From positions 315-64,314 of the forward strand of contig JAYTHE010000025.1 of the NCBI GenBank assembly GCA_043732705.1: 64,000 nucleotides of DNA. Direction: 5' to 3'. This DNA comes from Candidatus Omnitrophota bacterium. Its GTDB lineage: Bacteria > Omnitrophota > Omnitrophia > Omnitrophales > Aquincolibacteriaceae. The position numbers and the translations under genes were made by a program. The stretch's first letter is position 1, and each line of letters begins with the position of its first letter. Shown in pieces: positions 10,616-43,000 of the stretch. The notes under the pieces are model-generated. The model had not been told where the DNA came from. It made no database searches and worked only from the letters and a program-made list of their open reading frames with translations.

Positions 10616-10674
10616 GGTGTCCTAGACCGCCGTCACATTGATAACAGCCTGATGGCTGTGGACGATGGCGACGC
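10616..10674 (-). pseudogene. Truncated or rearranged tRNA-Glu 5' fragment (pseudo-tRNA).
   Basis: GCGTCGCCATCGTC...GGTCTAGGACACC matches the tRNA-Glu 5' acceptor and D-arm but carries a 32-nt palindromic insert (ACAGCC-ATCA-GGCTGT) and has no T-arm. Confidence 0.45.
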
Positions 10675-10760
10675 AAAAGAGACCAAATTATACTGAATTT
10701 TTATTGCGCGTCGAGCAAACTTTGTTTGCTGCGCGTAAAAAGAATCGCGAACTCTCTTGG

Positions 10761-10790
10761 CGGTTGCGCTTTGCGCAGAGCCAAAATAAA
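10761..10790. repeat. Direct repeat flanking tRNA-Lys, copy 1.
   Basis: cggttgcgctttgcgcagagccaaaataaa versus cagttgcgctttgcgcagagctaaaataaa at 10914-10944. Confidence 0.7.
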
Positions 10791-10794
10791 ACCG

Positions 10795-10866
10795 TGAGGC
10801 CGGATGGGATCGAACCATCGACACCATCCTTAAAAGGGATGTGCTCTACCAACTGAGCTACGGCCT
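10795..10866 (-). tRNA. tRNA-Lys, anticodon TTT.
   Basis: GAGGCCGTAGCTCAGTTGGTAGAGCACATCCCTTTTAAGGATGGTGTCGATGGTTCGATCCCATCCGGCCTCA. No CCA encoded. Confidence 0.9.
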
Positions 10867-10913
10867 CGAAAAAACTACCGCTAAACAAACCAAAGAAACT
10901 TTAAAAACTTTTC

Positions 10914-22027: not shown

Positions 22028-25000
22028 CTATGCGGAAAACGCGATCACTAATTCCGCCATCAATTGCTGCGCGAACTCTGCCATCACTCTAAATTCTTTT
22101 TCTCCGAAAAACTCTTCACGCGACTTAATTTTATCTTCGGGAACTAAAAGCGCTAATGTCGGCAGCCCGGCATTTTTTGTGCTGTAAGCCGCGCGAATAA
22201 TTTTTTTATTTCCGGGCAATTTATTCAAAAACTCGGAGTAGCCGGCAATGCGGTCATGCTGCCCAAAAAAGATAACGCGTTTGTAATTTCCGCGCAAACC
22301 ACTAAAAAAATCAACCCTGTTTTCGTCCGTAAATTGCCTTTTCAATAAGTCGAAACGTTTTTGAGCTTGGGCGCTCAAAATTTTCGTTCGATTTACGCGC
22401 AAATTAATTTTGGAATTAAGCCCAAGCAATGCCACGTACTCATTAAATTGAGCTTCCGTCATTGCTCCGAGCGTTTCATCGTCTAAAATCAAAAGTGCGG
22501 AATCACTGATTTGGGTTTGTTTGAATAAACTTAAAATCATTGCGGCATGATCTTCGGACGTGAGTGGCGCGGATGTATCGCGTAACTCCGACCTTGCGAT
22601 GCCAGACTTCTCTTGATGATTTTTATAGCGCTTGGAAAACACTTCAAAAGCCCCTGCCATTCCGCGTAAACGGAACATCTCCTTGACTTGCGCCATCACG
22701 GCTTCGCGCCGTTCCGGCGGAACCATACCCAGAACAAAATCCACCGTTTCAAAATCAAATATTTCTTCTTTTGGCGGCAATGCTTCGACTGTTACTGGGT
22801 GATTACGCGAAACCATAATCAATTTATTTGATTCCTGCGATGGGAATGTAATTGTCTTTTCAAGACCCGGGCCGTTATTAATCCTGCCGCCCTTTTGGGA
22901 TACCCAAACGGCAAACATACTGGTGTCTGATATTTCCGAACTTTGAAAAACGATTTTTTCCAATTGTGGCGCTTGTTCTAAAATTGTTAGAATATTGGCG
23001 GTCTCTACCTGCCGATTGATAATCATTTCTTTCAGATTTCTGGCGGCGCTCAAATCAAACGGTATTTCATCCCATCTGCTGCCTTCGCGAATGACAAAGC
23101 GCTCCATATTTTGAGCACCATTGATCAATTTTTGAATTGCCGAAAAATCACTGCTGTCACTCCTTGCTACATAATCAAACTCTAATTCAAAATTTCTGAC
23201 TTGCGCCATATGCGGTTCAAATTCCGCTAAAAATGCGTGATCCAAATCAGCCCAATTATCAATTCTCAGGGCTAAGCTTTGTAATTCTCGGCCGCTTTTA
23301 CCCAATTGCGGCAAAATAAATTGCGCTGAACCCTGATCGACGTCTAATTTTTCTAAAAGCGGCAAATCCACAGGATTGCGTAGCACTCTAGAACTAGAGG
23401 GTTTATCTATAACTAATTCGGTTAGAGTATTCGCAAACTCATGAATCCACATCCGGCCAAAAACATTTGTTTTCTCTGTCGTCCTTATAATCAATCGTTT
23501 AATGGGAAATCGTAAATTTTGAATGAGTTTTTCAACCACATCGGTAAAATTTCCGCCTAAATTGGTCTTATCAAATCCCAATGAATGAATCTTACGGCCT
23601 CTTACCGCATCAAATACTCCACGCAAAAATTTTGCATCGTATGATTGTTCGCCGAAATAAAGCGAATCAAGATTGGGCATAACATCTATAATTTTTTTAA
23701 TTTTATCGATTGTTTTCTGAGTTGTCTCGGTCATGTCTAGCTTAATGGCGCGCAACTGAGAATTTTTTATAGCATCTAACAGAAAAGAAACTGCTTTCGG
23801 ATTTTCTTGGGCGGAATAATCAAAATGATCCTCCAAAACCAGCCCCTCTACCATTGGAAATTGTCTTTTTAAGTCTGGAAGAAACTTAGAGGCAAGATAC
23901 ATCTGCCAAATTGTTAAAAAAACTTTTCCGTCTTCAGCTTTAAATAAAGCTACACCGCTAAGCTGCATTTTTGCTAGTTTTTCGTTGTACTCAGCCGCGA
24001 TTTCTTTGGCGGATTTTTCGGATACCGAAGCTGAAGATGCGACCGACGGCGGTGAAGCCGGTTTAGTTTCGGAAAATACTATTGTAACTTCATGCAATCC
24101 AAAGGCATTCGCAACGAGATCAATGAGTATTTTAAACTGTCTGCCATGAGAAAGAAGAGACTGTTTGAGTTGCTGTGCATCGGAGATATCATTAACTTTG
24201 AATGCGATTTTTTTCAAACCGGGTAAATAGTCATTGATATCGTCAATACGCTCAATTCCAATACGGTTGTCGATCGTAAGTTCTTTGAGCTGCCGGAGTT
24301 TATGCAGACCCAAAGATTCAATATCCGCTAAGCTATCGAGATGAATATCGACCAAGGTTATTTTTTCAGCGTTTGGCACGCTCTTAATGTTGAATCGAAA
24401 ACCTTCAAGATCATCGGGGCGTGTCTGAACCGTGAGTTCCTGGATACCCCCAAAATAAGCGTTCAAAGTTCTCAATAAACCCCGGGCATTGGCATTCGAC
24501 GACACAAACGATAATTCTAGTTTCTTCAAGCTTGGCGTAATCGATTCAAAAAATTTCTCCGTATTGTCTACCACCGTATCGCCTGCGGCGGCGTTTAGAA
24601 AACTGCTGGATAGCGAAAGAGTTTGGATGGGGCGGCCCTTGATTGCATTCAAAACAATTTGCACAAATGCAGGGCTGTAGTCTGCTCCTCCAAAATAAAG
24701 CGCCTTTGTTTGGGACAGCTTTTCTAAGACCGTAATTAAATAATCGCGTCCAATCGTATCACTTTCATAAGCACGGCCCGTAAAATCACTGTCTTCTAAA
24801 TAAATTGCATCAAAATCTTGACGCAAACCCAAGATAAGAGTTCCTGCTGAAAAATCCAGATTGTCATCAAAGACAATACCGTCAATCTTTGGAAACTCTT
24901 TAAGAAAATCCAGATTGTATCGTTGACTATGCACATATAACGCTTGTTGAGCTTTTAAAAATACTCGGCCGTCATGCGCCCAAAAAATAAAATGGTCGGC

Positions 25001-28000
25001 GGAAGAATCGGGCGATTTTGTCTTAATTGTCTTGAGCTGTGCATTGTATACCGCCGCGCGATCTTCGGCAGATAATGCGGACGTCGAATCTGAGGTCGAC
25101 GCCGATGTCGGTGCGGGCTTCGGCAGCTCCGAAGGTGCTGCTTCCCTCATGGCTTTTACATTTACGGTGATTTCATAAAGGTTGCCCTTAATTACAGCTG
25201 CGTTCCAAGCATTATTAATTTCTCCAAATTTTGCGGTGATCGCGTTTTGATCGAATCGATCGTGAATCGTTTTTGCAAATTGAAGCGCATCTAAGTCAGG
25301 CAATCGCTCGATTACTTTTACGGCAAGGTCAATATCGATTTCATCGGCAATGACAAGGTCAATATCGACTTCCTCGGCAATGACAAGCTCCCGCAGTTTT
25401 GGCGTCGCGGTAGCATTCAACATATTTTTCTCCATAAATATTCCAAGATTGTGCGCGCTCACCGTCAAGCTTTCAACTTGCACAAGGTTAGTTCCGATAG
25501 GCTTCAGCAACTCTGTATGAGCTGTCATAGATAGCGTCCTCAACTGGCCGCTAAACATATTGATAAACTGAGACTCAACCTTCATCGTCCCGCTAATGAT
25601 CAAATGCTCAAGGGGCCAGCGGGAATAGGCTATTTTTTCTAAAAAAGCACGGCTATAAGCGTCACGCCACTCATATAACTCAAGTGTCGTGATACGACTC
25701 GCGTTAAAATGAGGAATAATTTCAGATAAATCCCCGTCACCACCCACATCTTTATGGAAATAAACGGAATTTAATTGTTTAAGGTGATCAATGACCCATA
25801 CTAGTTTTTTCTTTGCGTCCGGGATGGAATCGTACTGCTCCTCTTCTTGAATTTCAATCGCCGTAAAATCAGATTTTACTTGGAGTATTTTTTGAACCTC
25901 ATCCAATCCAGAGGCACGATCAATAAAAATACCTTCCACATCTTCAAATTTATTTAAAAAATCGTAGGAAGCAACACGAGTGACCCCGCTCCCAACTTGC
26001 AAAAATACTTTGTCGTCGCGACTCATAAAAAAACTTTGCCCTGTCTCAACACCCTCCGTATTTAATAGCTTCAAGCGCTCATTGTATGCCGCCGCACGGG
26101 CTCGCGCATCCATTTGCGGCGCGGCGGCAGATTCAGAGGAAGCTCCCTCAGTTTTTCGAATCCAATACCTAACGCCAACAAGTTCGCTTTTTTTATCTTC
26201 CAGAAACACAGTCAAATCATTGGGTTGCTGGGCTGCACCCTCCGCTCTTTCAACAAAGTGCCGCTGTATCATCGAGTCATCCAGCAAACCATGGTCAATA
26301 AAAAGCATTCGCAAATGGGGTAATTGTGCGAGCGCATCAGGAACTTTGGTTAAGTCAAATCCAAACGCCAGCTGGATGCCACTTAAATTGAGACTTTTTA
26401 AATTTTTAAAACGCGCCAATAAAAACGTCATGTCGTCGGTATTAGAAAAACCTAAACCTTGCAAATTGAGGTCAATTATTTTTTCGGAATGCGGTATCGT
26501 TTCCAGGATATGACCGGCACCCATTTGACTATTTTCAAAAGACCAATGCGTCACATGCGGCGATCCAAACCTGCTGAGCTCTATATTCTCTTTGCTTTTT
26601 ACTTTTCTAAAGGAAACGCGAATCTCACCCTCCGGAAGCTTTTCAGCAGTGATGTCTCCGCTAATGTAATCCCCTGAACCTTTATATGAATCAATTTCTC
26701 TTTTAATTCTTGCTAACGCCTGGTTAACGTCTTCTTTTTGTGGGGTTGCTGGAATTCGATGCGCGGCTTCCGCCTCCGCATCAAGCTCAAGATAAACCTG
26801 CAGATCAGGACGCGATTTGAGTTTCATAAGAACGTCCGAATCAGCTCCATCAAAACGGACGCGAAAAACTTGAGCCGTATCTGTCTTATCAGCTCGTTCC
26901 AATTGCTCTTTAATTTCTTGTCTAGGGCCGAAAAGCTCCTTCAAATGAGAAAAACCACCAAGCGCAAGCGATAAATTACTCGTGACTTGCGGAGAATGAC
27001 TAATGGAAATATTTTCAAGTCCAGGGTTTCGTAAAGTTAAAAGCGCAACATCTTCAGCAATAACTGTTTTCTCATACACCTCGGCAATATCACATCCTTC
27101 AAAGTAACGAATAAATGACCAGTCCGTGACTCCGTCAGCCCCGAGATTGATTCTCAGCCACCCGTCTTCTTCATTTGCATCAAAAAGATTCTTTGGCATG
27201 AAGTCGGGCGCGGAAACAAACGCCGGTAAAATATTTTTCATTCGGCCTGCTGCGATTTCAGATTTTATTTTAGCGATAATTTGCAAGTTGCGTTCAAGGC
27301 GTTTCGCCGGAGTTAATTGATAAACCTCTTCAATCGGCTTGCCATCAAGCCAAGACACCGCCGCTGGAAGATGCGGGGCTTGGGCTCCGGCCAAGTTGTC
27401 CTTCAGCGGCGGCTTTTGCGCATTGCCGCCAAATGTAAAAAGCTTGCTGCCTGTGGAGCCTTGCGTGAAATTAATTCTTATAAATTTCTCTTCTCCCGCG
27501 CCTTCCTTGTAAGGCTTAATGTGGCCCAAATAATCCCGTTCTTCGCCCGGCAAACTTAATGACCGAAGCGGATTTTGAATAAAGGCTGCCAGGTAATTTA
27601 TCGCGACCGGCGGGAAATAATTATTGTTCGACACTCCCTGAATTTTAAGCGACTCCGTATATTTTAAATTCGCGAGCCAGCTCCATTCATGCGCTGGAAA
27701 AGCCTGATTAACCGCGTAAGTTATATTTGCAAGCTGCGGATTATTTTGAACAAAAGTCTGCATATCACGCGGCGTAATCGACTGGCTCAAAAATATTATT
27801 TGGCCAATCCCGCGCAATTGCATTAGCAGCTGCAGCTGTTCATCAGATAGTGCCTGCGATATTGCAAGTGCAAAACCAGCACGATCAACATGCTTGCCGC
27901 CGGCACCGCCACCGAGAGGAGCGGGTACTATATATTGGCTCATGATAAAAGTTGGCGAACCACCGCTTGGTTCAAGTTTCATTTGATTAATAATTCTTTG

Positions 28001-31000
28001 ATTGTAAGCTTCCAATTCACCGGTATCCATCTTGTAGGCCTGCTCAGGATCAAGCTGAGCAGTTGGCGGAGACGGTTGCTTTTCCTCTTTTGCGCTTTCC
28101 TCATCATCCGTCCGCATCACTTTTTTCACACGCGGATTATTGGCAAGCAAAAACCTCTCGCCCTCGGAACCTTTTTTAAGGGAATCATCCGCGAAAATAG
28201 TTGAAATTCCGCGCAAGAAAGGCAAAGCAGCTTTTTCACGTGGCCCAATACTTGTAATAAAAAGTTTCAACCCCTTCGCACCTGGTCCGTGATCGTTTGT
28301 AAATATTAAGCTCATCTCAGATGCCATCGAAGAAGACATTACGTGCATGTTGTATTGATAGAGCTCTTGCTGACTATAAGCATAAAAATCTTCCGGCTTG
28401 GTAACAGAATCAATTGGCGGTTTAGCGGCCGGTGTTGGAGATTGAGGCGACAAATGTTTCAAAACAAAATGTCCGCCGGAATACGAACCTCTAAAGCCGC
28501 CTTCATTTCTATATTCAAGCTCGAACGCTCCCGGATGTCCTTGCTCAGATTTTTCAGCATACGGCCCCAATTCTGCCACCGTTGGCATCTCAAATAGCGA
28601 TAATCCAGTTAACCGTGGCGATTGAATGAAACGCAAATTACCAAGCGGTACGTCTTGTCCGAACATGACAGTTTGCAGTTCTTTCCATTCGGCCAACCAG
28701 GGCATTTCCGGCCAAGATCTAACGTTCACTGGTCTGGGTACATATTCCAATATTCTCATTCCCGGATTGTTTTTGGCGAAAACCGCTAAACTTTCACTAT
28801 CCTGGGGTGATTCAAAAAGAACGCCATCGATTCCGCGAAACAACGGCATCATTTTTTTAATTTCTGAAGGTGTCGCGTCACGACCCACAGTCAACATGAT
28901 GATTCCATCGCCACCGTAACTGATCAGGAGATGCCCCCCCTGATTATTTCCGGTAAGAATGTTCGCGTTATAGTCAGATCGCTCTACGGTGGAATACTCA
29001 TAATAAGCATTCGGATCAGCAAGCGGCTTTGCAGTATCCAATACCGGTTTCCCATTTTGTTTAGCGGGTTGCTTGGACGCAGCAGATTTAAGTTTGTATC
29101 GCCCGCGAATAGTATCACTAATATACTCAAAACCTTCCCCGTCTCCCGCCGGCTCAATATACTGCGCAACGGTGTCGTTTTGTGGTTCAAGGTTCGAATG
29201 AAATTTTTCAAGCGGCATGTCCTTGATCCAATCGAAAACGTCTTCTAAAATTGCCCCGTACTGAATAAGCCCAAAGTCCGTTACATTGCGAAGCTCTCTG
29301 ACCCATGACAATGTTTGTATGATTTCAAAATCTTTAAAGTTAGTTGCCGTTTTAGGAGCTACATACATAAATGACTCAATGCGCGGATTATTTCGAGCAA
29401 CTTGGGTCATGGTTTCGTGCGGAAGCGCATGCGCGCTAGTATTTTTAATTGACAATAGTTCCAAGCCGCGCAATTGCTTTAAAAGTTCCAATTGTCCGTC
29501 ACTTATCGCTTTGGCGGATTCATGCAAGATAATTGATAAATTGTTTCCGGAAGTTACAAAAACCTGTCGGTCTCTTTCCGATATCACATTGAGTTGGTGG
29601 ATGATCGCCGCGTTATAAGCCGTTATTTCCGCCGCAGACATTTGATAAGCCTTTACAGGATCCGGCGCGGTGAATTGATTAGATGGCTTGGGTGTGGCAG
29701 GTTTGAATTTCTTCCAACCTAATGGACTAGTTTTGCTGTTAACTCCCTTTCCATGAACCATCGCAATATGAATTGAGCCTGGGTCTGCCACATCTGCATT
29801 TTCAAAAAAGAGAGGTTCCACTTCACCCATCTTTTCCAACTGCGTATCCGTAAAAATAAATTGTCGCGCGCCGGCTAATTGCTCCAAAGCCCAGCGCCAT
29901 CTAGAAGGATCCCGTATTTCTGCATCTTGAAAACTGACTGATGCGCGCGCAAAGATTCCACTTACATGAATGTCGCCATAAAAAATATTCATTGCAAGAA
30001 ACTCTTTAACAATCTTTTGAATCGCGGCGGGCGAGCCAGGCTGCGGCGCTTCTAGCTTCGCTTCTTGTGGCGCAATTGCAGGTTTAAGCTTCATCCACTT
30101 GAGAAATGGATCACCCTGACTAAACTCGACAACTAAAACTGCTCCTGGCTCACCTTCGTTCGCAGGCTCGAAATAGTCAAACGCTTCGGATGAGCTATCA
30201 AACGCAAATCGTCTCGCGGCCGGCAACGCCCTCAAAACGAATATCCAATCTTCGGGGTGTCTTATTTTAAAACCCACAAAGTTCACTGTCACAGTCGCGG
30301 GATCAAACATAATCTTTCGATTATCCGCAAAGAAAGCTCTGCCGTTCAATTCTTTCAATTCCCGTTCCGTCAATCTGCGATCTTCTTCCAGCCTCGCATC
30401 TTCCAACGAATGAATTTTATATTTCTCGGTTTTTCCGTCGCTGAATGTGATCAGCACCGCATCTACTGCGTCAGACCTCTGTAAATACGGTAAGCATTCG
30501 CTTTGTGTAAGCGGAACCGTTAATTTTTTTAGACCCATGGACGCAAAAGCCTTTATCGACCCCGCATCTAAACTTAACGACCGTGATTTTTTTTCTAGGC
30601 CAATTTCTTCGACATGTCTCAATTTATCAAACCAAAAGAGATTTTTGGAACCGGGAACGGCCTTAGATACATCATGGAGAATGATTGCAATGCGCGGATT
30701 GTTAACGGCAAACTCATCAAAGCCGGCAACATCACTGCGAACGTTAACCGCATGGACACCACGAAACTCTGCGAGAAGCGCAACCTGTCCCAGTGACAAA
30801 ACCCCCTCAACTTCAAGATAAACTTTACCGCCGACTAGATCAACTTTCACGCGTGTAAAATCACTCTTTCGCTTGCCATTCAAAGCTAAAATTTTATCGC
30901 GAACATCATGGTTCCATTCCATCAAAGCCGTTTTATCCATCGTATACGCCGCTTCCGGATCGGGCGCTTGGGATGGCTCGGACTGTGTTTTTTTTGCGAT

Positions 31001-34000
31001 AATTTTAAACTTGCCTTCTCGATGACCAACGCTGAAAGTAATTTTTATGGCATCGTCGTCATTCGATGGCTGCAGGTCACGCTCATAATCTTTAAATAAG
31101 CCCGGTAACACCAATTGCTTAAGCGGCAGATCCGCTAAACTCGGAAGATAGTCCGCAAAATTATCCGCATCCGGTTGATTCGATCTAATGGTGAGATCCC
31201 TCAAATTTTTAAAGTGGTTAAACAACCCTAAGTCTTGACCAAAACCAATAACAGATAAGAGGCAATCGACTACTATTATGCGAGGATTGTTTTTTGCAAA
31301 TTCAGCCAAAGCGTTTGTTTTATTAAGCTCAATATGAACGCTCATTATGCCGCGAAAATCTTTTAAGAGAGCCGCTTGCTCAGCAGACCAAGAGCCACGA
31401 AGCAAGATGGTTCTCGGCGAACTCGAAAAAAACTCAGGAACCTCCGCACTATTTCCCGTACCGTTCAATTCCAGAATTTTATTTCGCACACCATTGTTCC
31501 AAGCAAGCAATTCCTGCGACGACATTTCATACGCCGCTTCAGGATCAGGCGCTTGGGATGGCTCGGGTGAAGCAGGCGGGCTCGCCGTGTCTGACAGCAC
31601 AACGCTCATGGTTTCATCGCCAACACCAAACGAGACTTCCACGACATTATCAGCTCCCGCCGGCGCCGATTTTAATGCCGGATAATCTTTTTTATTGCCG
31701 GGTAATTCCACTGTTCTGAGCTTAGGCAGCTGCGATAAATATTTTAAATTCGCACCCAAATTAAATAATGCGCGCCCCTTCGACATCCCCAAAATATTGA
31801 GCCGCTCCAAATGTTTGAGCGACGCAAGCCAGGGCCGCGTTAGATTCGCGCTATCGCTCTCATGAAGATGAAAAACCAAATGATATAATCGCGGGTTATT
31901 CGTGACTAAGCTTTCAATACCCTGCATGTCTTTTGCATCCATATGAATTGACTCAATGCCACGGAAGCTCGCAAGGAGTTCGATTTGCGCCAAAGTCGGA
32001 TTACCGTAAACGGATAAAACTAATTTGCCCTCAAAAGATTCAGATAAAGAAGCTCCTGACGTTGTTGCCAAAGCATTCAACCTGTCGATAACGGTTTTGT
32101 TATAGGCGAGGCGGTCAGCAAAACTTAAGTCGTATGCGGCTTCAGGATCGAGCACTTGGGATACATGCGGCTGAGTTTCTTTCGGTGCGGGCTTTGCTTG
32201 TAAATGCGCTAAAACTGCAAAACCCTCGTTCTCTTGTCCCGTAAACTCGCCGGCACGATTACTCATAAAGTGCACAAAATGAAACGCTCCGGGTTCATTT
32301 GCAACTGTTCGTAATAGATAAGGCTTACACTTTTCCTGAACTTCAAAGAGTGACAAACTTTCAAGTTTGCGGGATGAGATGAATTTTAAAACTTCTACCC
32401 CTACATTCGCAAGCGGCGGAAGCGAAAGATGAACGACATTGGTTAAATTCTCAAGCCATTGCCAGCCATCAACATGCGTTGTCGGCGAAAGGTCAGCCGC
32501 ATAATCAAATTGGCGAATTTGAGGGTTGTTTTTGGTCAGTTGATCCAAATCGTAATCCGAAACTTCCGGTGAATTGATGTACACTTCCCCGATTCCCCGA
32601 AGCTGCGGCAGCACATTTCGATCTAACTTAGTTAAGCCCGAACTAATATGCAAAAACAGGTGCCCATCATCCGATAATTTAGTATTAATCTTCGCTTCTG
32701 GAATTCCATTCGCCGCCAAAATTTTCTGGTTGTATCTCCAAAGCTTGATTATGTCGAGGCCATAATAATCATTCGGATCTGCGAGCGGCTTTTGCGGATC
32801 GAGCGGCAGTTGAGCCTTTGGCGCGGCAGCGGTTTCTTTGACACGATGTTTTTCGGGCCACTGATTACCATTGTTAAAAATCTCAAAACCAAATCCTCCG
32901 TCAGTAACCGTTTGAAATACTGCGAGGGCTTGCGCTTGTGACTCGGCGCCTTTTCCATCAGGAGGAAAACGAATGAATAATTTTTCTAATTTACGAAATC
33001 TTTGAATGCTTTGCCAATCTGTAAAATTGGGCGCGTTTTCTATCGATAAAACTTTGAGTTCAGTCGGCAATGCGTTTACAGCCTCATTTGTGATATTCGT
33101 CCGAGACACACTGATTTCATCAGCGCCGGCTGTGGCCTGGGCAATTTGAATCCATTCCTGTTGATTTTCAGGGGACCCCATGAACAGAGAGACGTTGACC
33201 CGCCCGTCCTTGAGAAAAACACTATCTTTAAGGTCTGTTTTTTTCCATGGAAGCACACCGGCATCCATGAGGCTCTGCAATGCTCGCTGAACCTTCTCGA
33301 GTCGGGCTTGAGCGGGTTCGTTCACTGTGGACGGCGCGGCGGCTTTGATGCGGTATTTCCTCATTAACAAACTGCCGTCAAAATCAATTTTAAAACCTTG
33401 CTCATCATCGCGAACGGATTCCAATTCAGCACGGGCTTGCATTGATGCAGGTCCCCCGGCATCAACAAATGCGATATGCAATTCTTCAAGCTGATGGAAT
33501 CTTCGAATAATTTGCCAGTCCGTAAACTGGCGGGTATGATTGAGTATCAAGACCTTAACTCCGGCCGGTAATTCGCTTACGGCTTCGTTCGTGATATCTC
33601 CCGCCGCCGCGTAAATTTCATCCGCTCCTTCAACAGCGCGGACAATTTGAATCCAATGTTGGGGATTCTTTAAAGTCATATTGCTCAAGCTCACTGTTAC
33701 CCTGTCGCCGTCTTTTAACTTAACACCGAAGGGAATAAATTCTTCTGTCCATGGCAATACGCCGTCCGCCATCAGCTTTCTTAAATTGCGCGAAATGGTC
33801 TCTAATCGGGCTTGAGGAGAATTGTCCGCTGCTTGCGAAGTTTTAGGTGAGGCATCGGCCGCAGGCGAAGAGGAGCGATTGACATGCGGATTGTTGCGAT
33901 GAAATTGCGCCATCACATCCGCAGGGGGCAAAGATTGGCCATGGGCTTCAAAAGAACTAACGCCGCGCAGCAACATAAGCGCCGCAGTCTCTTCTGCACT

Positions 34001-37000
34001 TAACGGTTGTCCTATTTCAACGCCCAGAATAGTTCCCTGGTTCTCAGTCACTGCCGAATAGCGATTAATTCTTTGCTGTGAAATTCCCGCTTCCTGCAAA
34101 ATCCGATTATTGTATTCAAACAAAATTGACGCATCGAGTTGGTAATAAAGATTCGGATCCGCGAGCGGATGCGCGGGATCAAGGACAAGCACATTTATGC
34201 GCCATTCTTTAGGTGCCGCGGGTGCGGGCGCAAAATATAAATCAAGTCCAGGCGCGTCCAGAGGAGCATTCACAATCAACACATCTTCTTCCAAATGATC
34301 CAGCTCAACAATCGTTTTGCGTCCGTTAAAAACAGCTAAAATGGAATTTTCCAACTCAAAAATATTTATTTTTTTGACTTGAGAACGGTGCAATCGACTC
34401 GCATCTTGAGAATCAAGCGTAAGCGAAAGATAACTGCGCAAATTAGGAAAATTCGGCAAAGGCATATTTGTCGCTGTGTCTTTAAGCGGCCACCATTCAA
34501 GCACAACCAACTCCGGGTTATTTTGGGCGAGCACTCCCAGCTCGGCTTTTGGCAGACCAAAGTTCGTCGCATCAAATGAATAAAAGTTTTTGATGTGCGG
34601 CATTAATTGGGTCCATTGTTCCGGTGATAGTTTATTGACAAAATAAAAATGCCAAAGCCCGTCTTTTTGATAAACCGTTTCTTCCTGCGCTTCACGTTTA
34701 AAACCTAATTTGGAAAGCTTGTCTTTAAGCACGGTTTTATCGGCAGGCTCTTGTGTTGCTGGATCGGAAGCGGCGTATTGAACCTGATAATAAACATTAT
34801 CCGGTTTGCCTTCGCCGTTTTGAATCGTGACTTTGTAGCCGTGTTCACTCGGCTCCGTGACGCGAAAATGATAATCAAGTTTGTTGCCCGTAATCGGCTG
34901 ATTTCGCGGCGCAATCAAATGGTCAATATCTGTTAACGAGGGCAGCACTTGTTTTGCAAGACTGCCTGCATGGATTCCAGCGGCAGTCAAATCTAAAACA
35001 ATTTCACCTTGATCGATTTTTAGAAAATGTTTTCCCAAAAGTCCGCGCATCTTTGCGTCATCAGACGTTAGCGCGTCAAATTGCTTAATCGCGTTTTGTA
35101 AGCGCTGTTCAATTCCATGCTTCGCGCCGGGGGGAGCTGGAACAGCCTCATCATCAAAAGGCACTTTCTGATTTTTAAAAATTTTTTCTTGCCCGTCAGC
35201 AAAATAAATCAAATCAAATCCATTACCTGAGGGATCCTCCCCCATAGTGGCATCTTCGCTCAAACGATTATTGCCGATTTGGACAACCAATCCTTTGCGG
35301 CCGTTCAGTACGGCTAAATCTGAAACATTGATTGGCAACGCTTTCTTACCTGGAATAATGAAAATTTTTTCAACCGATGGGGGTAAAGTCAATATGTCCG
35401 GCAGTCCATACTCAATAGCATGCTCATAGACAATCTTGCGAAGGCGCGGCATTTTTTGAAGCGCAACAGCAACTTGTTCTGACTTTACAGCGGTAGCGTC
35501 AAAGTGCGCAAGAGTCAGCATTTCCAAACGCTCAAGCGGCAACGCATTAAATTCTGCTGGTGTCAAATGCCGGGCGCTATAACCACGCAAATTAGGAAAT
35601 AATTTACCGAAATCGGGCCAAAATCCTTCTTTCTCTGGAAAAGGCGGTTCAAGAATAAATAAATCTGGATTTTGATCAGCGAGAAAGCTCCACATCTCAA
35701 CCGGGAAATTATCCGCGTTTTCAAATTCGAGAACCGCGACGCCTCGAACGAGCATAATAAGACTGATCCAATCCACAAATTCAAGACGGCCCGGGTATTC
35801 CACGTTAACCCGGCAATAAATAAAGCCATCTTGATAGTTAATAGAAAAATACTCGCCGCCTTTCAACGCTTTGAGATCCGTGTTTAAACTTGCGGCATGT
35901 TCTCGCACAGCCTCGATTTTCGCGTTGTCCGGCTCATAAACAACATTCGAATAATTAACTTCTTTAGTGCCCAACTCACCTTGACTGTAAACCGTCACAA
36001 GATATCCCTTTTCAGAAACCGCGGCCGGCCGGAAACTATAATTTTTCGGAGATGGAGGATAGGGTGCTTGCGACATTGGATCCGAAGGAGACGGAAACCG
36101 GGCATGGCCAATAAACCGCGGAAGAAGTACATGATCAAATCCGTGAATATTTTTCAAAATTTCATTCACGACATCCATACCATGCTTTTCGTACGACGTT
36201 AAATCCAAAACTACTTCATCGTGATCAATGGAAACAATACTCGGGGCAAATGGATACTTTTGTATTGATTCCAAATGCAATAGCTGGTCGATTACAGCTC
36301 TTTGACGCTGCTTGAGGTCTTCGATTGATTTATTTTCAGAAAAATCTGCAAGGAGTTCGTAAACTTGATTGAATTGATTCGTGGCATAAGTTCTAACTCG
36401 GGCGATGTTTTCAGGCAGAAGCGCATCGGATTCGGTCCAATATTCTACAAAGTCGTCTGTGGGGTACTTTGAAAAATCCGTCCCATCTTTTACGATGATG
36501 ATAGTTTTTAACTTTGCTCCTGCCAGCGCAAATGAATTGACAATATATTGTTTAACAGCCCCGCCCCTTTCGTGAATGAATCTTTGAACCAAAAAAGTTA
36601 AACCTATTTGTGAAAAAGGCTTCGCTTTGATTTTATATTTCGGGGACACGCCTTCCACGACGGCGGCTGCGGCAGCTTCCGGCTTCACTTCTTCATCCAT
36701 TTTTTGATGTTGAATCGCGGCATGCACAGCGGCATAGGCGTAACCGGAAAAAAGCAAAGTTTGAATGTCATCCAGAGTTGCCAGCCATGGGCTTTTTAAA
36801 TTAAATTCGCGCGCAAGATTTCGCGCTGTTTCGTCACGGTCAATCAAGGTTGCGTTTTGGCCCGCCATGCCTAAGGCCGCCATCAATTCCTGCAAAGACA
36901 AAATTCGCGGCGAGATTTGCCCAGAATTCATCAAAACCCGGACGGAATAGCCGCGCTCAAACAGAAAACGGAAAAGGTCTGCCTGCAATGCCGTCAATTT

Positions 37001-40000
37001 GCCGCCACCATAAATCACGAGATCACGCGGCAAACGCTTCAGTACCGCGCCCGAAGTTTGGCGCGCTAAATCCCAATTGCCCGTTTTAAGCAAAATTGAT
37101 AAATCCAGTTTATGTCCGCCTGTTCTTCTTCCCGTGTCCATCAGCCAGTTAAAAAAAGCCCGGAATAAATTCTCAAAAATTTCGGGCTCCTGATCGCGAA
37201 GTTTGGCGAGCTGAGGATCTTCAGGCGGTTTTTCAACCGTCGGCGTAATCGATACTGTTTTAAAATTCACAGCTTCCACCCGGACCAGCGCCTCATCGGG
37301 CGGTTTGATGATTTCGCCGCGCGGCCCATCAACATCCCAGGCATTTTTGCCGCCCCGCGCCTCAGGACTGTAGATGTCACCTTGCGGCTCAAATTTTTCA
37401 CCACTGTTTCTTCCGTCCAGGTTCAACAAGGACATGAAGCGACTCAACGCGTCCATTTCGCGCTGCTTCTTCTCGTTCGGCGGCGGTGACTCCGGCTCGG
37501 GCTCTCCTGCTTTTTCGCGCGCTGCCTTTTCCTCTAAAAACTGCTGATACCGGCGTGCCATCTCTTCTAATTTCTTATATCTTTGCCAGACGCGCTCATA
37601 TTTCTTAAGAGCGTTTTGAAACCTTTTATTTAATTTTTCCAGTTTTTGCTGCTCATCGGGATTTTGAAACTCCTGTCTTAAATTTTGCAGCATAACCAGC
37701 ACCGCGCCCGGAAGCCTGCGCGCGGGATTTTTAATTTGATCTTCAATTTCATCCAAACGTTTAAAAGTCACCATCCCCGGTGTTTTGAGCGCCAAAGCCA
37801 AATGCTTTTCGATCAGCGTCATCGCTTCGTCAAAATCCGCTACTTTTTCATTAAAGTTTTTCTGACGTTTAGCGCGTAAACGTTCCTGCGTTTGACGGTC
37901 GGCCTCTGCTTTCGCCTGTGCGTCCATTTCAGCGCGCATAGCAAGTGCCTGGCTGATATCCGGGACGGCTATCTGAGGTGCATTTTTTTCCTTAGGTATA
38001 TCGCCCTCCTGAACTTCGGGAACAGGATGATTTGTATTTTGAACAATGCTTTCAACCCAATCTACAATTTGAGATTGTAAAAATTGGATTTGGAGTTCGC
38101 TTAAAACCAACTCGCCGCCATTGATATCCGGATCTAATTGGGTAGTTAAGCTTTCCCATACATTCGATTGAGGCATTCCGACATATGAATCACCCTTCAA
38201 ATGTTCAAGCAAAGCAGGAAAAGGATTTTCACCCAGCAGCGAGAAAAAGTCGCCGTCACCATTCTGCGCTCCGGTAAGCCCCATTAAAGCGGCCTGAAAT
38301 TTTTCTAAATCCGCGATCGTAACCTGGCCAAACAAATAGGCCATAAGCGAGTAACGGTAAAGTTTGCGCGGTGTCAGCGTATTATTTGCATTTTCAATCC
38401 ACTCAAAAAGTACTGCGACCGCGTCCTGGTTCAAAGCTCCTTCGGGAGTGCGAATGTTTTGAATCACATGCGCCAATTGAATCGCGGAGTTGGGCGGGCG
38501 GCGCGGTTCCCGGCTAAAAATCCGTCCGGCTAAAAATTCAACCCAGGCCAATTGCACATCATCAAACAAATCCGCGGCAAGTCCTTTATTGGCATCCGAC
38601 GACCAGGAGCGTTCATTGAAAAGAGAATCCATGATTTGCATAAATAATTTTTCGGATTGTTCCCCCTGCACACGGAAATATTCACCGCGCGTAAAAGCAT
38701 GCATACCCAAAGTCATACTGATAAAAAACCAGTCCCTTCCTGTCGCAATATCCGCCGTGCTAATTACAAGCGCATTGTCCTTATGCTCAAAATAAGAATG
38801 TTGATTGGTTCGATTGATTTTGACGTGAATTTTATTAATGACAGGCGGACTTAAGACATCCACGATTTTTTGATAAATCGCGACTTGCTTCACCGAAGCT
38901 GTGTCAGGCTGATTTTCGGTAAGCTGCGACACGGCATAAAGCCGCTCAAAATCAGCGGAATGCTCCGCAAGTTGCCAGCGTTCGTATGTCGGCCCATAAA
39001 CAAAACGCGCGGCATCCGCCCAACCAGCTTGCGGATGCTTGACTAAATATTGAATGGCTCGGGTCAGTTCACGAATGGTAGGAATAAACTCTTCGTTTTG
39101 GACTTGAGCGGTAATCCAAGCCTGAAAATGCGCAATGCTGGCCACTCTAGTATCATCTTCCGCCAGCCCTGCGGTTTGCGCCAATTTTGCGGTGATTAAA
39201 AGCAAACTCGGCTCATCATAAGGCCGCGCCATAAACACCGATGAGCGGCTCATCAAAGGCGATGAGACTTTATTGCGGCCTGAAAAATGCGCGCCATTTA
39301 AAGTTCCGATGAAAAGAAAACCCGGATGCGGCTTTTTCCCGCCGGCCAAAATATCATTCAACTTCCCTTCCAGCACGCCCGATTTCAAAAAATTCATTTC
39401 GCGCAAAGCAATGATGGAACCATCCGCTTTCGCAGTTTGAATCGTCGCTTCAAGTTCATCATCACTCATCGAACCGTTCAAATAATGAATGGCCTGGGAA
39501 GCGCTCGAAACCGGGTTGCGTTTTTGCCATTCCGCTAAAAAGTTTTCGAGTACAAAATCTTTGCCCCAACCCGAAGGACCCAGAACAAGCGATGACACCT
39601 TGCCGGGCTCAACAAATTGGCCCTCCGCGCGCGCTTGACGCAAGCGCATCAAATCCCATAAATACGCAAGATAGGAAAGCGTTTGGCCGGTCAACGCTAC
39701 GTCATTCAAAGTCGCATAGTCTGCAAATTGCGCGCGCGTTGCTTCCAGCCGCTTCGCTTCAAGCGCCTTAAAATCAAGCAGCGGCCTTCCCTGTTCGTCA
39801 TTGCCCATTTTTTTCTGAAATATGAACTGTACCGCGCTTTGTTCGACTTCGCTGAAACGGTCGCGGTAAACAAGCCAGATTTGATAAATCAATTCGCTTT
39901 TTTTGTCCTGGTCCGATGCGCTGAGGCCGAATGCTTTGACGCGATTGCTGGCTTCTTGAATTTCGCGGATCGAAAACTCATATTGCGGGCCGATTAATTT

Positions 40001-43000
40001 CGCGATTTCATGCATATTCATCAAAATCGGAATGATTTCTTCGGCATCCTTCACGCCCGCTAAATATCGCTCGGCCTGCGCTTCATAAAAAGCCCGGTCA
40101 AAGTCATCAAAAACAACCGTGACACCTCTTTCCTGCGCGACGCGCAAGACATTGCGGTCTTCCGTTGTTTCATCATTGCCGGTCATCACAATGGGTTTGT
40201 TTTTGCCGGCATTATCTAATAAAAAATAATGAAAATCAGCCGGAGCGGTATTGGCTTCATCCCAAAGCAAAATACCGCGTAGGCTTTTACGCCAATTGCC
40301 CACAAAGCCGCGCGGGCCGGTACCGGTCAATTCACTTTCTTCGACATTAGAACCCGTTGTAAAAGGCCCGAATCTTTCTTCCGCGGAATAGCCAAGCGCT
40401 TGCGCTAAATCGGGCAACAATTTACTTTTGCCCGTACCGGGCGCGCCCTGCAAAAAAACAATCGGAACCGCCTGCGTAATTTTTTTCACCAGTGCCAGAC
40501 GTTCATCGGCTGTTAAATAATCAAGTTCAAGTTCATCGTCGATGAGAGGAACTGTTAGATTGCCAACACCGGCGTGATTTAAAGTGTCTCTTAAAAAACT
40601 TCGAAAACCCGTGCGGTCATTCTTGTATTTTAAAACCACGGCCTCTTTAATGACGGCAAGCGGCTGCTCGGACAAATCTCCTTTCCAAGACTTTTCGGCG
40701 AGCTCATCCCTTAAGGCCTCGAGCGTGTCCCAGCTCAAAGTATTCACCATTTGCCAATAAAATTTATGCCAATCTTCCGCAGACCGAATGTGACTTAGAA
40801 TTTTGTTCAGCCTTCGCCCGGCAATCGCCGAGTTCATGCTTCCGGACACACCACGTTTGGCTTCCTGCGCGCCCAACATGATTTTGGCCTGAACCTGAAT
40901 GTAATTCGCGATGACCGCGTCGCGGCGATAATGCACGCCCCAAGTATGCTGAAAAGCCTCGAAAGGATTTTGTAACTCTTGCAGCAACGCGAAATAAACC
41001 TTTAGCCGCGCATAACTCCAATCAAATTCGCTCGGAAACAGTTCGTTGGTCAAGCCGCGATTTGACGGCAAAGGCAGATTTTTAAAGAGGTCGCGCAATT
41101 GCTTGAGCTGATTCCATTTTTCATTCAGCTTGCCGCTTGCCGCAAGAGTTGGAAATTCTTTTTTTAACTGCTCGAAATAAAGCGCGTCTTGATCTTCAGA
41201 TTTTGCGATGCGCGTGGAATATTCGTAGCGCGACCGGCCTTCATTTAAACCAGTCGCCGTTAAAATCAACTTCCCTTTGAATTCGGAGAGATTCTTTCGT
41301 TCGCCATTCACAATCAAATAAGGCACGTCGGAGAAAAGCGACTCAAGTTCTTTCATCAAACGCGGACTGCGTTCGACGCCCTCAAGAATAACTGTTTCAC
41401 CCGCCTCAAGCGCGGCCAATACTTTTTGTTTCACGTTGCGAATTTCAAAATATTTGTCATGTACGCTCATGAGCTCGCCCGTATCAATCATCGCGCTCGC
41501 GCTTGATCCTAAGCTCATATGTTGGACCGTTACTTTTTGGGCGGGATTTGCGGCACGGATTCTCTCGGTCAGAAAAGGCAAATCATCAGCCTCGAGCAAA
41601 TGCACACTGCCTGCTTCCATCTCCGGTAAATCCGAAGTTGCCTCTTCCGGTTCCGCAACAGCCGCGGGCTTCATCGCAACGAAATGCGAATAAACGAACG
41701 GCACTTCCACTCCCGCGGCAACTTCCACTTGAACGCCTGGCGTATGCATAATCGCGTTCCAAATACCTTCATCTTCGAGATTTTCCGTGATTCTGATTTT
41801 GACATTCTTTTGCGCCAAAATCCCGGGCAAAGGCCGCAAACGGTTTGTGCGGGCATCAATCTCAACTCGTTGAAAGAGAATATCTTTGGTAACTTGATTG
41901 ATCATCCAAACGTCACCTTCCAACGCATGTCCCAAATGAATGGTTTTCGGCTCGGATAAACGTGAATAATCTTTTTGCTGAAAGACAATTTCAAAATCAG
42001 GCGGCACCTGAATCACTTGGCCGTTCACAATCAAGGTGCGGTAAACCAAAATTTGATCGATAAAATAGCGGAAATCCGGGTCGTTGCGCGGCCCCTGAAT
42101 TACAAGCCGTTTCTTGCCGTTCATCGCTTTCACGAGCGGGCCTTCCTGATACTCCCATTCACCCTGACCATTAATGCCGATATGCTCAACTAAAATATCC
42201 TGAAAATCGGACCTCTTCATAAGATCAATCACCGCGTCATTTGGTCCCAACACGGCATCTTCACGAAGCTGATTGTGGTCCTGCATGAGCCGGTCGAACT
42301 CTGAATGAAAAGCTCCCGTATCAAGTCCGGTGCTTTGATCATCCGTTTGCAGCGCGCGCGAATAAACTGTGATCGAAAAATGGTCCGCTTCTTTCGGATG
42401 AATTCCGACAAAGACCTGCAAACGTGGATCCGCGGGCGTGGCCGAGCTTCCTAAAAACGGTTTAGCATCGAAGAGCGCGTTAAACTGCTCCAAGGCCCGC
42501 GCGTCCGCGCCTTCGGTATCAAAAAATAAAATTCCGCCCCCCCTCACTACGCGTTCAATGAGCCCCATTTGTGGGACACGCGTTCCGTCCGGCTGAACCG
42601 TAGCCAAATATTGAACCTCAATCCGGTGACGGTCATCACGGAGACGGACACGCAGATATGGGACATCGCGGTTTTCTTTTGACGACCGCTGCTTGGCGAG
42701 GTTATGCAATTCAAAATCCAGCGCGTCCATCGCTTCGGTTTTGTCAATGACGCGCGGCTCGCCTTCAATATCCCGCATTTCGGAACGCACGGTTTCGACA
42801 TCTACAGAAAGCGATGAATCTTTTTTTGTATAATTCCAAACAATATGACCGCCGCCCTTTGTAATTGAGGCTACAATTGATGAGGTGTAATCACTGTCGA
42901 ATTGCCCACGTAGTTCATGAGTGGACACTTTTATGAATCGTGAAATCATTGCAAAGGCAACTACGGCTGACAACATACTGAAAACGCCGGCCGGGAGAAT

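Follow-up and report, generated by a model that had tools for sequence, protein, structure and literature searches.

The 64,000-nucleotide stretch of Omnitrophota DNA analysed here (the window) contains a single, uninterrupted open reading frame of 7,555 amino acids on the minus strand (22028..44695), which holds all the features described below; those of the protein are likewise given on the minus strand. The protein is identical to library protein P0001, which both NCBI and Logan contain, on a single contig of 65,180 bp. The region 22900-34200, described in the first-pass annotation as a giant repeat array, corresponds to about aa 3499-7265, in the C-terminal half of the protein. An artefact, in which the open frame is non-coding or chimeric and there is no real gene, would fit a protein that is a singleton cluster at 90% identity and has no homologues over most of its length. 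However, the frame remains open over 22.7 kb at a GC content of 41-49%, the N-terminal 2,380 residues have strong homologues (best E 6e-191), a confident fold is predicted for the modules, and the N- and C-terminal features of the family are both in frame at the two ends of the ORF, so that an artefact is hardly credible.

The protein starts with a signal-peptide-like segment (44591-44695, aa 1-35), which precedes a conserved N-terminal domain (43256..44563, aa 45-480) with the motifs IQDAHDSLEAQ, YEEGYEG, GGAE, and GGFH. The AF2 model of this domain has a pLDDT of 83.7, and its Foldseek matches are weak, to erythromycin-esterase/ChaN-type folds. The domain shares 31-38% identity with over 119 large proteins and with 176 genomic loci, and every named relative found by it is from Candidatus Omnitrophota. 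Clear AXA-type cleavage sites are present in the N-termini of the relatives. Judged by these shared parts, the protein is a member of a multi-copy family specific to Omnitrophota, the plan of which consists of a Sec-type signal peptide, the conserved N-domain, a variable cargo delimited by RSE[LM]R, and a conserved C-terminal tail. In this protein RSEMR occurs at 43160..43174 (aa 508) and, at the start of the cargo block, at 42773..42787 (aa 637); an RSKMR variant occurs at 43223-43237 (aa 487), and the cargo block ends with RSELR at 22580..22594 (aa 7368), 188 aa from the C-terminus. Family-wide, domain boundaries show an enrichment of about 100-fold in the strict RSE[LM]R pentapeptide, which could mark processing sites. 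The C-terminal domain (22031..22579, aa 7373-7555) ends in ...AELVIAFSA, as is typical of the family, in which a hydrophobic stretch and then [SA]A close the protein. A TM-like hydrophobic segment (42935..43003, aa 565-587; Kyte-Doolittle 19-residue window up to 2.22), missing in many relatives, lies between the N-domain and the cargo.

The cargo block of 6,730 aa opens with a midasin-like multi-AAA+ region (37556..42778, aa 640-2380), with the repeat array distal to it. The AAA+ region is common to the relatives P0151 and P0152, and BLAST aligned aa 640-2382 to P0151 with 27% identity (E 3e-123). Clear P-loop modules are found at aa 1391-1900, where Pfam AAA_5 and AAA exceed their cut-offs (at 29 and 22.1 bits, respectively) on the P-loop only, and a profile of aa 1380-1900 (A5) matched midasin in the PDB with E values of 4e-18 to 5e-15. 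Like the present protein, midasin (Rea1/Mdn1) strings AAA_5-type modules together in a single polypeptide, which continues into a long linker, a helical region that is acidic and charged, and a distal binding part. Unlike midasin, the present protein is bacterial and has a signal peptide and an N-domain specific to its family; Pfam found no MIDAS/VWA domain in it, and its distal part is an array of leucine-rich repeat (LRR) beads.

The first reading of the DNA reported an array of related modules that recur periodically and open with a conserved box, and this is confirmed. The box in its strict form, DPxx[AYK]Y-x(8-12)-[YW]N, is present eight times (aa 3513, 3973, 4183, 4384, 4579, 5012, 5227, and 5549) against a mean of 0.0015 in 2,000 shuffles, and NNP[RQGH][ILVM] follows about 85-90 residues downstream of the box in nine modules (expected 0.03). 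Two degenerate boxes are present at aa 5438 (KPEDFYAY..YN) and aa 5788, and the YN half alone ('AAxYNxxL') is present in three C-terminal modules at aa 6195, 6541, and 6895. Some form of the box is thus carried by 13 units, against the at least 14 counted in the first reading. BLAST of 250-aa fragments yielded 38 internal repeat pairs with E values down to 7e-38, and an iterated self-profile gathered 13 units between aa 2918 and 6372. The series as a whole spans about aa 2790-7300, starting upstream of the region first reported (to nt 36328), and consists of at least 15 (about 15-20) modules of 110-410 aa each.

Modules of several types make up the array. Type-A modules (26771..34168, aa 3510-5975), with type-B units interspersed, include seven full modules starting at aa 3970, 4180, 4381, 4576, 5009, 5224, and 5546, two half modules (aa 3510-3625 and aa 5435-5545), and a degenerate module (aa 5785-5975). 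The typical full module is about 200 aa long and runs from the helix DPxxAY..YN through FRGI, NNPRI, and LRR-like turns to a closing hairpin, with a linker rich in Pro, Ser, and Ala at its end. The gene's closest pair is formed by two neighbouring type-B units of about 165 aa (32816..33814, aa 3628-3790 and 3796-3960), with 47-48% amino acid and 55% DNA identity (E 7e-38). They had been described as adjacent, about 45% identical, and LRR-like; adjacency and identity hold, and their LRR-likeness comes down to an in-register hhalign alignment of type B with type A that is non-significant (E 0.064). Two truncated type-B relatives (29672..30313, aa 4795-4893 and 4905-5008) match each other (aa 4800-4886 with 4916-5013, BLAST E 9e-7), and one of them matches a full unit (aa 3662-3753 with 4798-4893, E 1e-4). 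A unit with more canonical LRRs follows the type-A series (26129..26770, aa 5976-6189), and at about aa 6070-6190 it gave sub-threshold matches to Pfam LRR_4 (17.1 bits; cut-off 27) and LRR_LRWD1. Three type-C modules (22796..26128, aa 6190-6535, 6536-6889, and 6890-7300) of 346-411 aa keep the type-A 'AAxYNxxL' helix and first strands and then add extra LRR-like turns. They match one another by BLAST (E 2e-10 and 3e-12) and are tied to type A by hhalign of profiles A1 and A3 (E 3e-4 over 137 columns) and by a match of profile A1 to aa 6190-6356 (iE 6e-4). In addition, two upstream modules of about 400 aa (34169..36328, aa 2790-3190 and 3194-3509), outside the region first reported, lack the box but have the LRR-like core of the array (QNPDL / NNPEL). 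These match each other (aa 2790-2902 with 3194-3291, BLAST E 5e-7), profile A1 matches aa 3322-3469 (iE 3e-5), and the iterated self-profile also reaches into them.

The AF2 model of the module at aa 4180-4380 (pLDDT 83.8, pTM 0.79; linker pLDDT < 50) has a helix at residues 13-29, then strands 23-30 residues apart with a short helix after each, and a terminal hairpin. Foldseek against the PDB gave LRRC8C, Skp2, Mex67, NLRC4, TIR1, and TLRs as top matches, all weak (best E 1.6e-3, TM about 0.3-0.4). All remote matches of profile A1 that were checked are canonical LRR proteins, which align to positions of about 50-160 only and leave the opening box unmatched. Over the modules, no Pfam LRR model reached threshold, the sub-threshold matches being confined to the one place given above, NCBIfam gave no match, and the asparagine ladder typical of LRRs is not apparent. 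A profile search run exhaustively over 1.84 billion protein cluster representatives found the complete module in P0001 only; 120 family relatives gave no module match at E <= 10, and genome and metagenome scans for the module gave none. The first-pass annotation had proposed an undescribed repeat domain. No known model covers the modules and the full module is unique, but the module core is a diverged LRR; the module is therefore a new LRR-derived module rather than a new fold, and the array, though unique in sequence, would be a scaffold of protein-binding repeats of a well-known kind.

Both by profile and by Foldseek, the module comes closest to ribonuclease-inhibitor (RI)/NLR and Skp2/F-box (CC) LRR proteins (Pfam LRR_6, LRR_4, LRR_14), which share strand-helix units of 23-30 residues in a short solenoid. 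The RI-type 'L..aL..N..L..L.L', seen in match P0002, is mirrored by 'L..f..NNP.L..L.L' in the module. In contrast to these proteins, the module is below every Pfam LRR cut-off, has just 4-5 irregular turns, carries its own conserved capping helix (DPxxAY..YN) and closing hairpin, is separated from the next by a Pro-rich linker instead of joining one long horseshoe, and occurs complete in no other protein. Bacterial LRR surface proteins and effectors with N-terminal caps include the internalins and the YopM/IpaH-type proteins, with one LRR domain each. They resemble the module in having a short LRR solenoid, a helical N-terminal cap over the hydrophobic end, and a protein-binding role, and differ in repeat type and in having one LRR domain against about 15-20 in series here; the modules gave no sequence or Pfam match to these families.

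The order of a P-loop NTPase followed by LRRs is that of NLRs, and, apart from this protein itself, the module profile has its top match in an animal NACHT-LRR protein. Together with a weak PADLOC match to mad8 (E 1e-3) on the P-loop region, this would suit an NLR/STAND-like immune sensor whose repeats sense phage or foreign proteins and trigger defence. Such a sensor is very unlikely: the NACHT match is confined to the P-loop at 18.9 bits (cut-off 26.7), the ATPase region matches midasin-type concatenated AAA modules instead, and PADLOC is blank on the LRR half, with a marginal match elsewhere only. No effector domain was found, the neighbouring genes are housekeeping genes, and the export signal and N-domain of the family are present.

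The age of the duplications is read from their divergence. The type-A pairs are 23-35% identical in amino acids and 39-48% in nucleotides, and the longest exact direct repeat in the 22.7-kb coding sequence is 19 nt. By these values the modules are old serial duplicates that present no recombination or assembly hazard. The recurring DNA box was recovered 6-13 nt from the positions first given: a 38-nt box at 31529..31566 (the exact copy), which encodes (S/P)EPSQAPDPEAAY on the minus strand, the linker end and opening box of module 4381, and a copy with two mismatches (95%) at 30944..30981, where module 4576 begins. Two weaker copies were found, at 32132-32169 (71%) and 29645-29682 (63%), and 100 shuffles contained none. 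The 30-nt tandem, first placed at 25321-25390, is found at 25324..25387 (2.1 copies, 94% match); it doubles the decapeptide IAEEVDIDLV / IADEIDIDLA, so that type-C module 1 has 10 aa that its two paralogues lack. From the box, recent intragenic duplication had been proposed, with an array prone to recombinational length variation and assembly error. A recently expanding contingency array of this kind, with strain-variable copy number and possible mis-assembly, would be in keeping with the 95% identical box in two adjacent modules, with slightly raised codon identity in the box (11/14 identical codons at identical-aa positions vs 26/59 elsewhere, Fisher p 0.035), and with the tandem. However, over 213 codons the two modules that share the box have only 34% amino acid and 48% DNA identity, no pair in the gene exceeds 55% DNA identity, a 19-nt repeat is too short to recombine efficiently by homology or to make an assembly collapse, and Tandem Repeats Finder reported nothing besides the 30-nt tandem. 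Dissolved nucleotide tandems are also general in Omnitrophota long genes, according to a 2026 preprint (10.64898/2026.06.07.730766). Neither part of the proposal holds, and recent expansion is most improbable; the sole recent events are the 30-nt micro-duplication and possibly a short conversion patch, the 38-nt box.

Giant ORFs above 20 kb (PMC10066038), 'tandem-repeat scaffold' giants (10.64898/2026.06.07.730766), and Archaeovorins and Dockerin-type giants (10.1101/2023.11.21.568195) have been reported from Omnitrophota. Such giants resemble the present protein in their phylum, very long single ORF, N-terminal signal, membrane association, frequent AAA_5, and dissolved nucleotide tandems of repeats. 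The repeats named there are HEAT, WD40, TPR, NHL, TSP3, lectin, and dockerin, with LRR not among them in the passages covered, and Archaeovorins, at 30,000 aa or more, are far longer than the 7,555 aa here. Pfam found no HEAT, C39, S8, or dockerin match in the present protein.

The signal peptide predicts export, which conflicts with an ATPase that needs cytoplasmic ATP. If the whole cargo were exported, the LRR beads could form a long surface fibre by which an ultra-small cell attaches to host or prey. Surface proteins often carry LRR arrays with Pro-rich spacers, and the known LRR adhesins and invasins would be precedents. Such an extracellular adhesin would also agree with the Sec-like N-terminus and the cleavage sites of the relatives, and adhesion or predation has been proposed for giant Omnitrophota ORFs (PMC10066038; 10.1101/2023.11.21.568195). 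It is nevertheless an unlikely alternative, though one of some weight. The AAA+ region at the start of the cargo has intact Walker A and B motifs and there is no ATP outside the cell, the TM-like segment would act as a stop-transfer that separates the exported N-domain from the cargo, cysteine is almost absent from the protein, and neither Pfam nor NCBIfam gave a match to any known domain of the adhesin, dockerin, or lectin kind. Going by its hydropathy, this segment would reconcile the export signal with a cytoplasmic ATPase.

The preferred reading, to which a probability of about 60% is given, is that the giant ORF encodes one membrane-associated protein of an uncultured Omnitrophota bacterium, with the region 22900-34200 as its binding tail. 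The array would be beads on a string, with at least 15 independently folding modules descended from one diverged LRR unit. Each would consist of the capping helix (DPxxAY...YN), a beta-hairpin, 4-5 strand-helix LRR turns with motifs (L..FRGI, f..NNPRI) that resemble ribonuclease-inhibitor/NLR-type LRRs, a closing beta-hairpin, and a flexible linker. Overall, the LRR array is most likely a multivalent binding tail, a protein-binding scaffold whose partners would be many copies or many kinds, and by analogy with midasin, in which an AAA ring and a distal binding domain are coupled, the AAA+ region may be coupled to this tail and may remodel or pull on the bound partners.

The region between window positions 22900 and 34200 lies wholly inside one giant ORF on the minus strand (22028..44695) that encodes a protein of 7,555 aa. 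With residue = (44695-n)/3+1, the region corresponds to about aa 3499-7265. Plus-strand ORFs within it, for example that at 25980-26513, are short and are shadows of the minus-strand giant frame. Rfam and tRNA scans gave no match within the giant gene, and the four tRNAs detected by the tRNA scan, at 1488-1866 and 10493-10867, are far from it. Ordinary chromosomal genes flank the ORF and encode an NAD-dependent epimerase, a GT87 glycosyltransferase, succinate dehydrogenase/fumarate reductase A and B, UbiD, a PIF1-like helicase and an NlpC/P60 hydrolase. The genes for the PIF1-like helicase and for the cell-wall hydrolase with SH3b and NlpC/P60 domains adjoin at 52912-54150 and 54339-55724 on the minus strand, and the remainder of the window is of housekeeping character (SdhAB-like genes, UbiD and sugar-nucleotide enzymes).

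The C-terminal half of the giant protein is a periodic array of related modules, as the first-pass annotation had proposed. BLAST of the intact protein against itself gives the identity match alone, and 250-aa fragments were instead compared with each other, which gave 38 non-trivial internal alignments with E values down to 7e-38. The strict opening box, DPxx[AYK]Y-x(8-12)-[YW]N, occurs eight times (aa 3513, 3973, 4183, 4384, 4579, 5012, 5227, and 5549) against a mean of 0.0015 in 2,000 shuffles. A second motif, NNP[RQGH][ILVM], occurs nine times at a fixed distance downstream of the box (0.03 expected), and [FL]RG[IVL] is present in all modules with a strict box. Degenerate boxes are found at aa 5438 and 5788, and three long C-terminal modules (aa 6195, 6541, and 6895) keep only the 'AAxYNxxL' half. 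The box, in whichever form, is present in 13 units, just short of the 14 or more counted earlier. The array also extends upstream of position 34200, as two units of about 400 aa without the opening box (aa 2790-3509, 34169-36328 on the minus strand). These two units match each other at a BLAST E of 5e-7; they have an LRR-like core (QNPDL/NNPEL) and a different N-terminal sub-domain, and the type-A profile matches the stretch aa 3322-3469 at 3e-5. An iterated self-profile gathered 13 units between aa 2918 and 6372.

The modules fall into several sub-types. Type A comprises seven full, two half and one degenerate module. Type B consists of two 165-aa units (aa 3628-3788 and 3796-3959) with two truncated relatives at aa 4795-5008, and type C of three modules of 346-411 aa each; a further unit at aa 5976-6189 contains more canonical LRRs. 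Alignment of the ten type-A modules with MAFFT (profile A1) revealed a common order, beginning with the box helix, a short strand pair, 'L..FRGI..I' and 'f..NNPRI..I', and ending with 'W(L/F)..LK.L..L.L', 'L..L.L', two closing strands and a Pro/Ser/Ala-rich linker. The module at aa 4180-4380 was modeled using AlphaFold2 with A1 as the alignment (pLDDT 83.8, pTM 0.79). The model predicts a long N-terminal helix (residues 13-29) followed by a hairpin, LRR-type turns and a terminal hairpin; the linker has a pLDDT below 50. Predicted strands at residues 46-51, 70-74, 93-97, 119-123, and 149-152 are each followed by a short helix. They recur every 23-30 residues, a spacing typical of leucine-rich repeats. 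The tandem strand-turn-helix units of about 20-30 residues that characterize the right-handed LRR solenoid are thus present in the predicted structure. The best Foldseek matches of the module are LRR structures, at weak scores (E of at least 1.6e-3, TM 0.3-0.4).

Profile comparisons using hhalign linked A1 to the type-C profile (A3) at E 3e-4 over 137 columns from the opening helix on, whereas the type-B profile (A2) aligned with A1 in register at a non-significant E of 0.064. Neither A2 nor A3 matched any PDB sequence, and A1 gave only non-significant LRR matches there. The LRR-like nature of types A and C is therefore well supported and that of type B unproven. The two units of about 165 aa had been described as about 45% identical and LRR-like; the identity holds (47-48%), and the LRR assignment is the part that is unproven.

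No Pfam or NCBIfam model matched the C-terminal 4,155 aa above threshold, and the curated LRR models, built on the consensus LxxLxLxxN/CxL, did not reach their own thresholds (LRR_4 17.1 bits with a cut-off of 27; LRR_LRWD1 14 bits with a cut-off of 28). Both sub-threshold matches lie at about aa 6070-6190 (LRR_4 at about aa 6097-6138) and none falls on type-A modules. An exhaustive hmmsearch of 1.84 billion cluster representatives with A1 returned one strong match, the giant protein itself, in 13 stretches; its entry, identical to the protein studied here, is a singleton cluster that occurs on one 65,180-bp contig in NCBI and Logan. The search also found 166 other proteins at E 2e-21 to 1e-3, usually in many stretches, and these span only about positions 50-160 of the profile. 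All 10 of those scanned match Pfam LRR models, nine strongly (LRR_4/6/8/14) and one (P0049) by a sub-threshold LRR_14 match only. An animal NACHT-LRR protein ranks first among the non-self matches, ahead of a plant LRR receptor-like protein, and the RI/NLR-type phrase '..IKRNPCLEELHL..' of one non-self match (P0002) corresponds to 'NNPRI..I' of the modules. Since the remote matches of A1 that were scanned are LRR proteins, the module core is, by sequence, a diverged LRR. Pfam and NCBIfam thus offer no well-known domain running throughout the array, whereas A1 does match established LRR proteins over the module core. The proposal of an undescribed repeat domain stands in that the module has no existing model; it falls in that the fold is LRR-derived.

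On profile evidence, the whole capped module is private to this giant protein among the sequences searched. A1 did not match any of the 120 family relatives even at E <= 10, and scans of GTDB genomes and JGI metagenomes with a trio of modules returned pattern matches and no true relatives. Word-indexed protein searches with three modules or with aa 5975-7300 found nothing at E <= 1e-3, a weak negative in that they missed the query's own protein as well; uniqueness rests on the exhaustive profile search and not on these. Word-indexed negatives are unreliable for repeat-rich queries in general, as the protein was present in the collection and was missed for two array pieces.

The first-pass annotation had also considered the array recently duplicated within the gene and prone to recombinational length variation and assembly error. 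Neither view agrees with the divergence of the modules. By protein-guided codon alignment, identity between type-A modules is 23-35% at the protein level and 39-48% at the DNA level; the 165-aa units, which resemble each other more than any other pair in the gene, reach 48% and 55%, respectively. Within the 22.7-kb coding sequence no exact direct repeat exceeds 19 nt, and the one of that length lies inside a 38-nt DNA box. Given the low pair identity and this short longest repeat, the array is old and poor in recombination substrates. The recurring DNA box itself is present, at 31529-31566 and 30944-30981 (two mismatches) with weaker copies at 32132 and 29645, displaced by at most 13 nt from its earlier placement. 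As a sign of recent module duplication the box was rejected, the two modules that share it being only 34% (aa) and 48% (nt) identical overall. Identical residues have identical codons at 11 of 14 positions in the box and at 26 of 59 elsewhere (Fisher p 0.035), an excess that either a short conversion patch or chance combined with codon bias could explain. Only the 30-nt tandem, which was confirmed and is located at 25324-25387 (2.1 copies), is clearly of recent origin, and it inserts ten residues that the two paralogous type-C modules lack. A 2026 preprint (10.64898/2026.06.07.730766) has reported for long Omnitrophota genes in general that nucleotide tandems are dissolved while domain repeats persist.

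The giant protein belongs to a family of large proteins, defined here from the matches to its N-terminal part. A search with aa 1-2700 found at least 145 proteins, and the best 120 were analysed. Almost all of these are 1,500-4,650 aa long, the named ones are from Candidatus Omnitrophota MAGs, and 119 of the 120 align over aa 30-500 at 31-38% identity. The family signature, a signal-like N-terminus followed by a domain of about 430 aa (IQDAHDSLEAQ ... YEEGYEG ... GGFH), is present in the giant protein; in the relatives a classic signal peptide, cleaved at an AXA-type site by its sequence, precedes the domain, and a wide variety of enzyme and repeat domains (Pfam) comes after it. Searching the GTDB species representatives with the N-domain alignment yielded 176 loci, with several in a genome; every named one belongs to Omnitrophota, and identity does not exceed 38%. 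The giant gene is therefore a member of a large paralogous family, and its source genome has no close sequenced relative. The N-domain (aa 45-480, window 43256-44563) contains invariant QDAHDSL, EG.EG, GGAE, and GGFH motifs and has no match in Pfam or among PDB sequences. Its AlphaFold2 model (pLDDT 83.7) gave as top four Foldseek matches the erythromycin-esterase members 3b55, 6xcs (EreC) and 2rad A and B, with ChaN at rank 15 and HopBA1 at rank 20, all of them weak (E 0.04-1.4, TM about 0.15-0.24). The motifs may correspond to the conserved His/Glu of the erythromycin esterase/ChaN/TraB/Tiki alpha/beta fold. The model is only suggestive of kinship with erythromycin esterase/ChaN/HopBA1-type folds, and a role as a hydrolase or protease head would be speculative. 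At the other end, nearly all full-length relatives terminate in a hydrophobic stretch plus [SA]A, here ...AELVIAFSA, which closes a weakly conserved domain of about 190 aa (aa 7373-7555, window 22031-22579, minus strand). This C-terminus may be a sorting or recognition tail.

Between these ends, two relatives (P0151 and P0152) additionally share aa 640-2380 with the giant protein at 27% identity (E 3e-123). This region (window 37556-42778, minus strand), common to these two relatives only, is a midasin-like AAA+ region: a profile of aa 1380-1900 built with both relatives matches PDB midasin at E 4e-18 to 5e-15. Two P-loop modules are clear (aa 1391-1560 and 1700-1890), and candidate further modules upstream (aa 640-1380) were judged by eye only. 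The Pfam AAA_5 match (29 bits) is limited to the P-loop. Unlike midasin, which has a MIDAS (VWA-like) C-terminal domain, the giant protein gave no match to such a domain in a whole-protein Pfam scan. After the AAA+ region comes a stretch rich in Glu, Lys and Arg, probably a coiled coil (aa ~2240-2420, nt 37436-37978). AAA_5 is among the frequent domains of Omnitrophota giants according to West-Roberts et al. (2023, 10.1101/2023.11.21.568195). The Archaeovorins of that study are at least 30,000 aa long, and their described features, which are not a formal definition, are HEAT as the most frequent domain, many TM segments, a C39 or S8 peptidase and SecA-like domains. The giant protein does not fit this description; it has 7,555 aa and one internal TM-like segment, and a Pfam scan detected no HEAT, C39, S8, or SecA domain.

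The single strongly hydrophobic segment (aa 565-587, window 42935-43003) lies between the N-domain and the cargo and is followed by positive residues; many relatives have no equivalent. The signal peptide implies that the N-domain is exported, and the segment could, judging from its composition, be a stop-transfer anchor, with the ATPase and the LRR array remaining cytoplasmic. If the whole protein were exported, a surface adhesin would be the better reading, a role that has been proposed for Omnitrophota giants in the literature (PMC10066038). An NLR-like immune sensor, that is, a STAND-type ATPase joined to an LRR sensor, is unlikely: the NACHT match reaches 18.9 bits (cut-off 26.7) over 23 P-loop residues only and no NACHT or NB-ARC NOD module is present, PADLOC gave no defence family beyond a marginal mad8 match, and the gene context is one of housekeeping. 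The protein carries LRR-type domains on flexible linkers downstream of a midasin-like AAA+ region, within a signal-bearing family. LRR domains bind proteins via their concave strand face. The beads would form a multivalent protein-binding tail, and if the analogy with midasin extends that far, the ATPase may exert a mechanical action on whatever the tail holds. The divergence of the beads suggests different partners or merely relaxed constraint.

The family also shares a pentapeptide, RSE[LM]R. The 120 relatives (337,750 aa) contain 276 copies where shuffling predicts 2.7, an enrichment of about 100-fold, and 112,512 aa of unrelated LRR proteins contain none. Across 80 genomic loci the pentapeptide occurs 82 times within the ORFs, each time on the strand and in the reading frame of the gene. 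Its codons vary freely among synonyms and the sequence on either side shows no conservation; the constraint therefore acts on the protein, and an RNA-level signal was rejected. The sites lie at domain boundaries with a median spacing of 408 aa, directly past the N-domain and typically 170-230 aa from the C-terminus. In the giant protein, RSEMR is found at aa 508 (43160-43174) and aa 637 (42773-42787), RSELR at aa 7368 (22580-22594), 188 aa from the end and directly before the C-terminal domain, and a variant, RSKMR, at aa 487 (43223-43237), all on the minus strand. With the sites at 508, 637, and 7368, the ATPase region and the whole LRR array (aa 642-7367) constitute one motif-free block. No mention of the motif was found in the literature searched. 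Its distribution makes it a candidate processing or boundary signal, offered as a hypothesis and not as a result. A wider reading, to which we give odds of only about one in four, is that the array is cargo of an undescribed polyprotein-like Omnitrophota system with interchangeable cargo domains separated by RSE[LM]R. Such a system would comprise hundreds of paralogous giants with a Sec signal, an Ere/ChaN/Tiki-like N-domain and an [SA]A-ending tail. Processing would take place at RSE[LM]R, with the N-domain itself or a dedicated protease as the possible cutting enzyme, and the cargo (aa 642-7367) would be a single unit for release or display, made up of a midasin-like motor and a lineage-specific LRR-bead binding tail.

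The finding amounts to a capped bead module of LRR origin, carried by a giant protein of Omnitrophota, and the fold of the module is not new. It adds a beads-on-a-string module to the repeat types of these giants, a contribution of modest value, and shows that an array of this kind can be of great age and genetically stable rather than hypervariable. The confidently folding unit of about 200 aa could be expressed to seek the partners of an uncultured, probably host-dependent bacterium. West-Roberts et al. (10.1101/2023.11.21.568195) have noted that missing cleavage-point information blocks the analysis of giants. RSE[LM]R, being strongly enriched, placed at boundaries and conserved at the protein level, provides a concrete hypothesis for the partitioning of Omnitrophota giants that proteomics could test. 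The family-wide motif and the N- and C-terminal domains that frame the cargo are more promising leads than the array itself, and the larger value lies in this family context rather than in the module finding alone.
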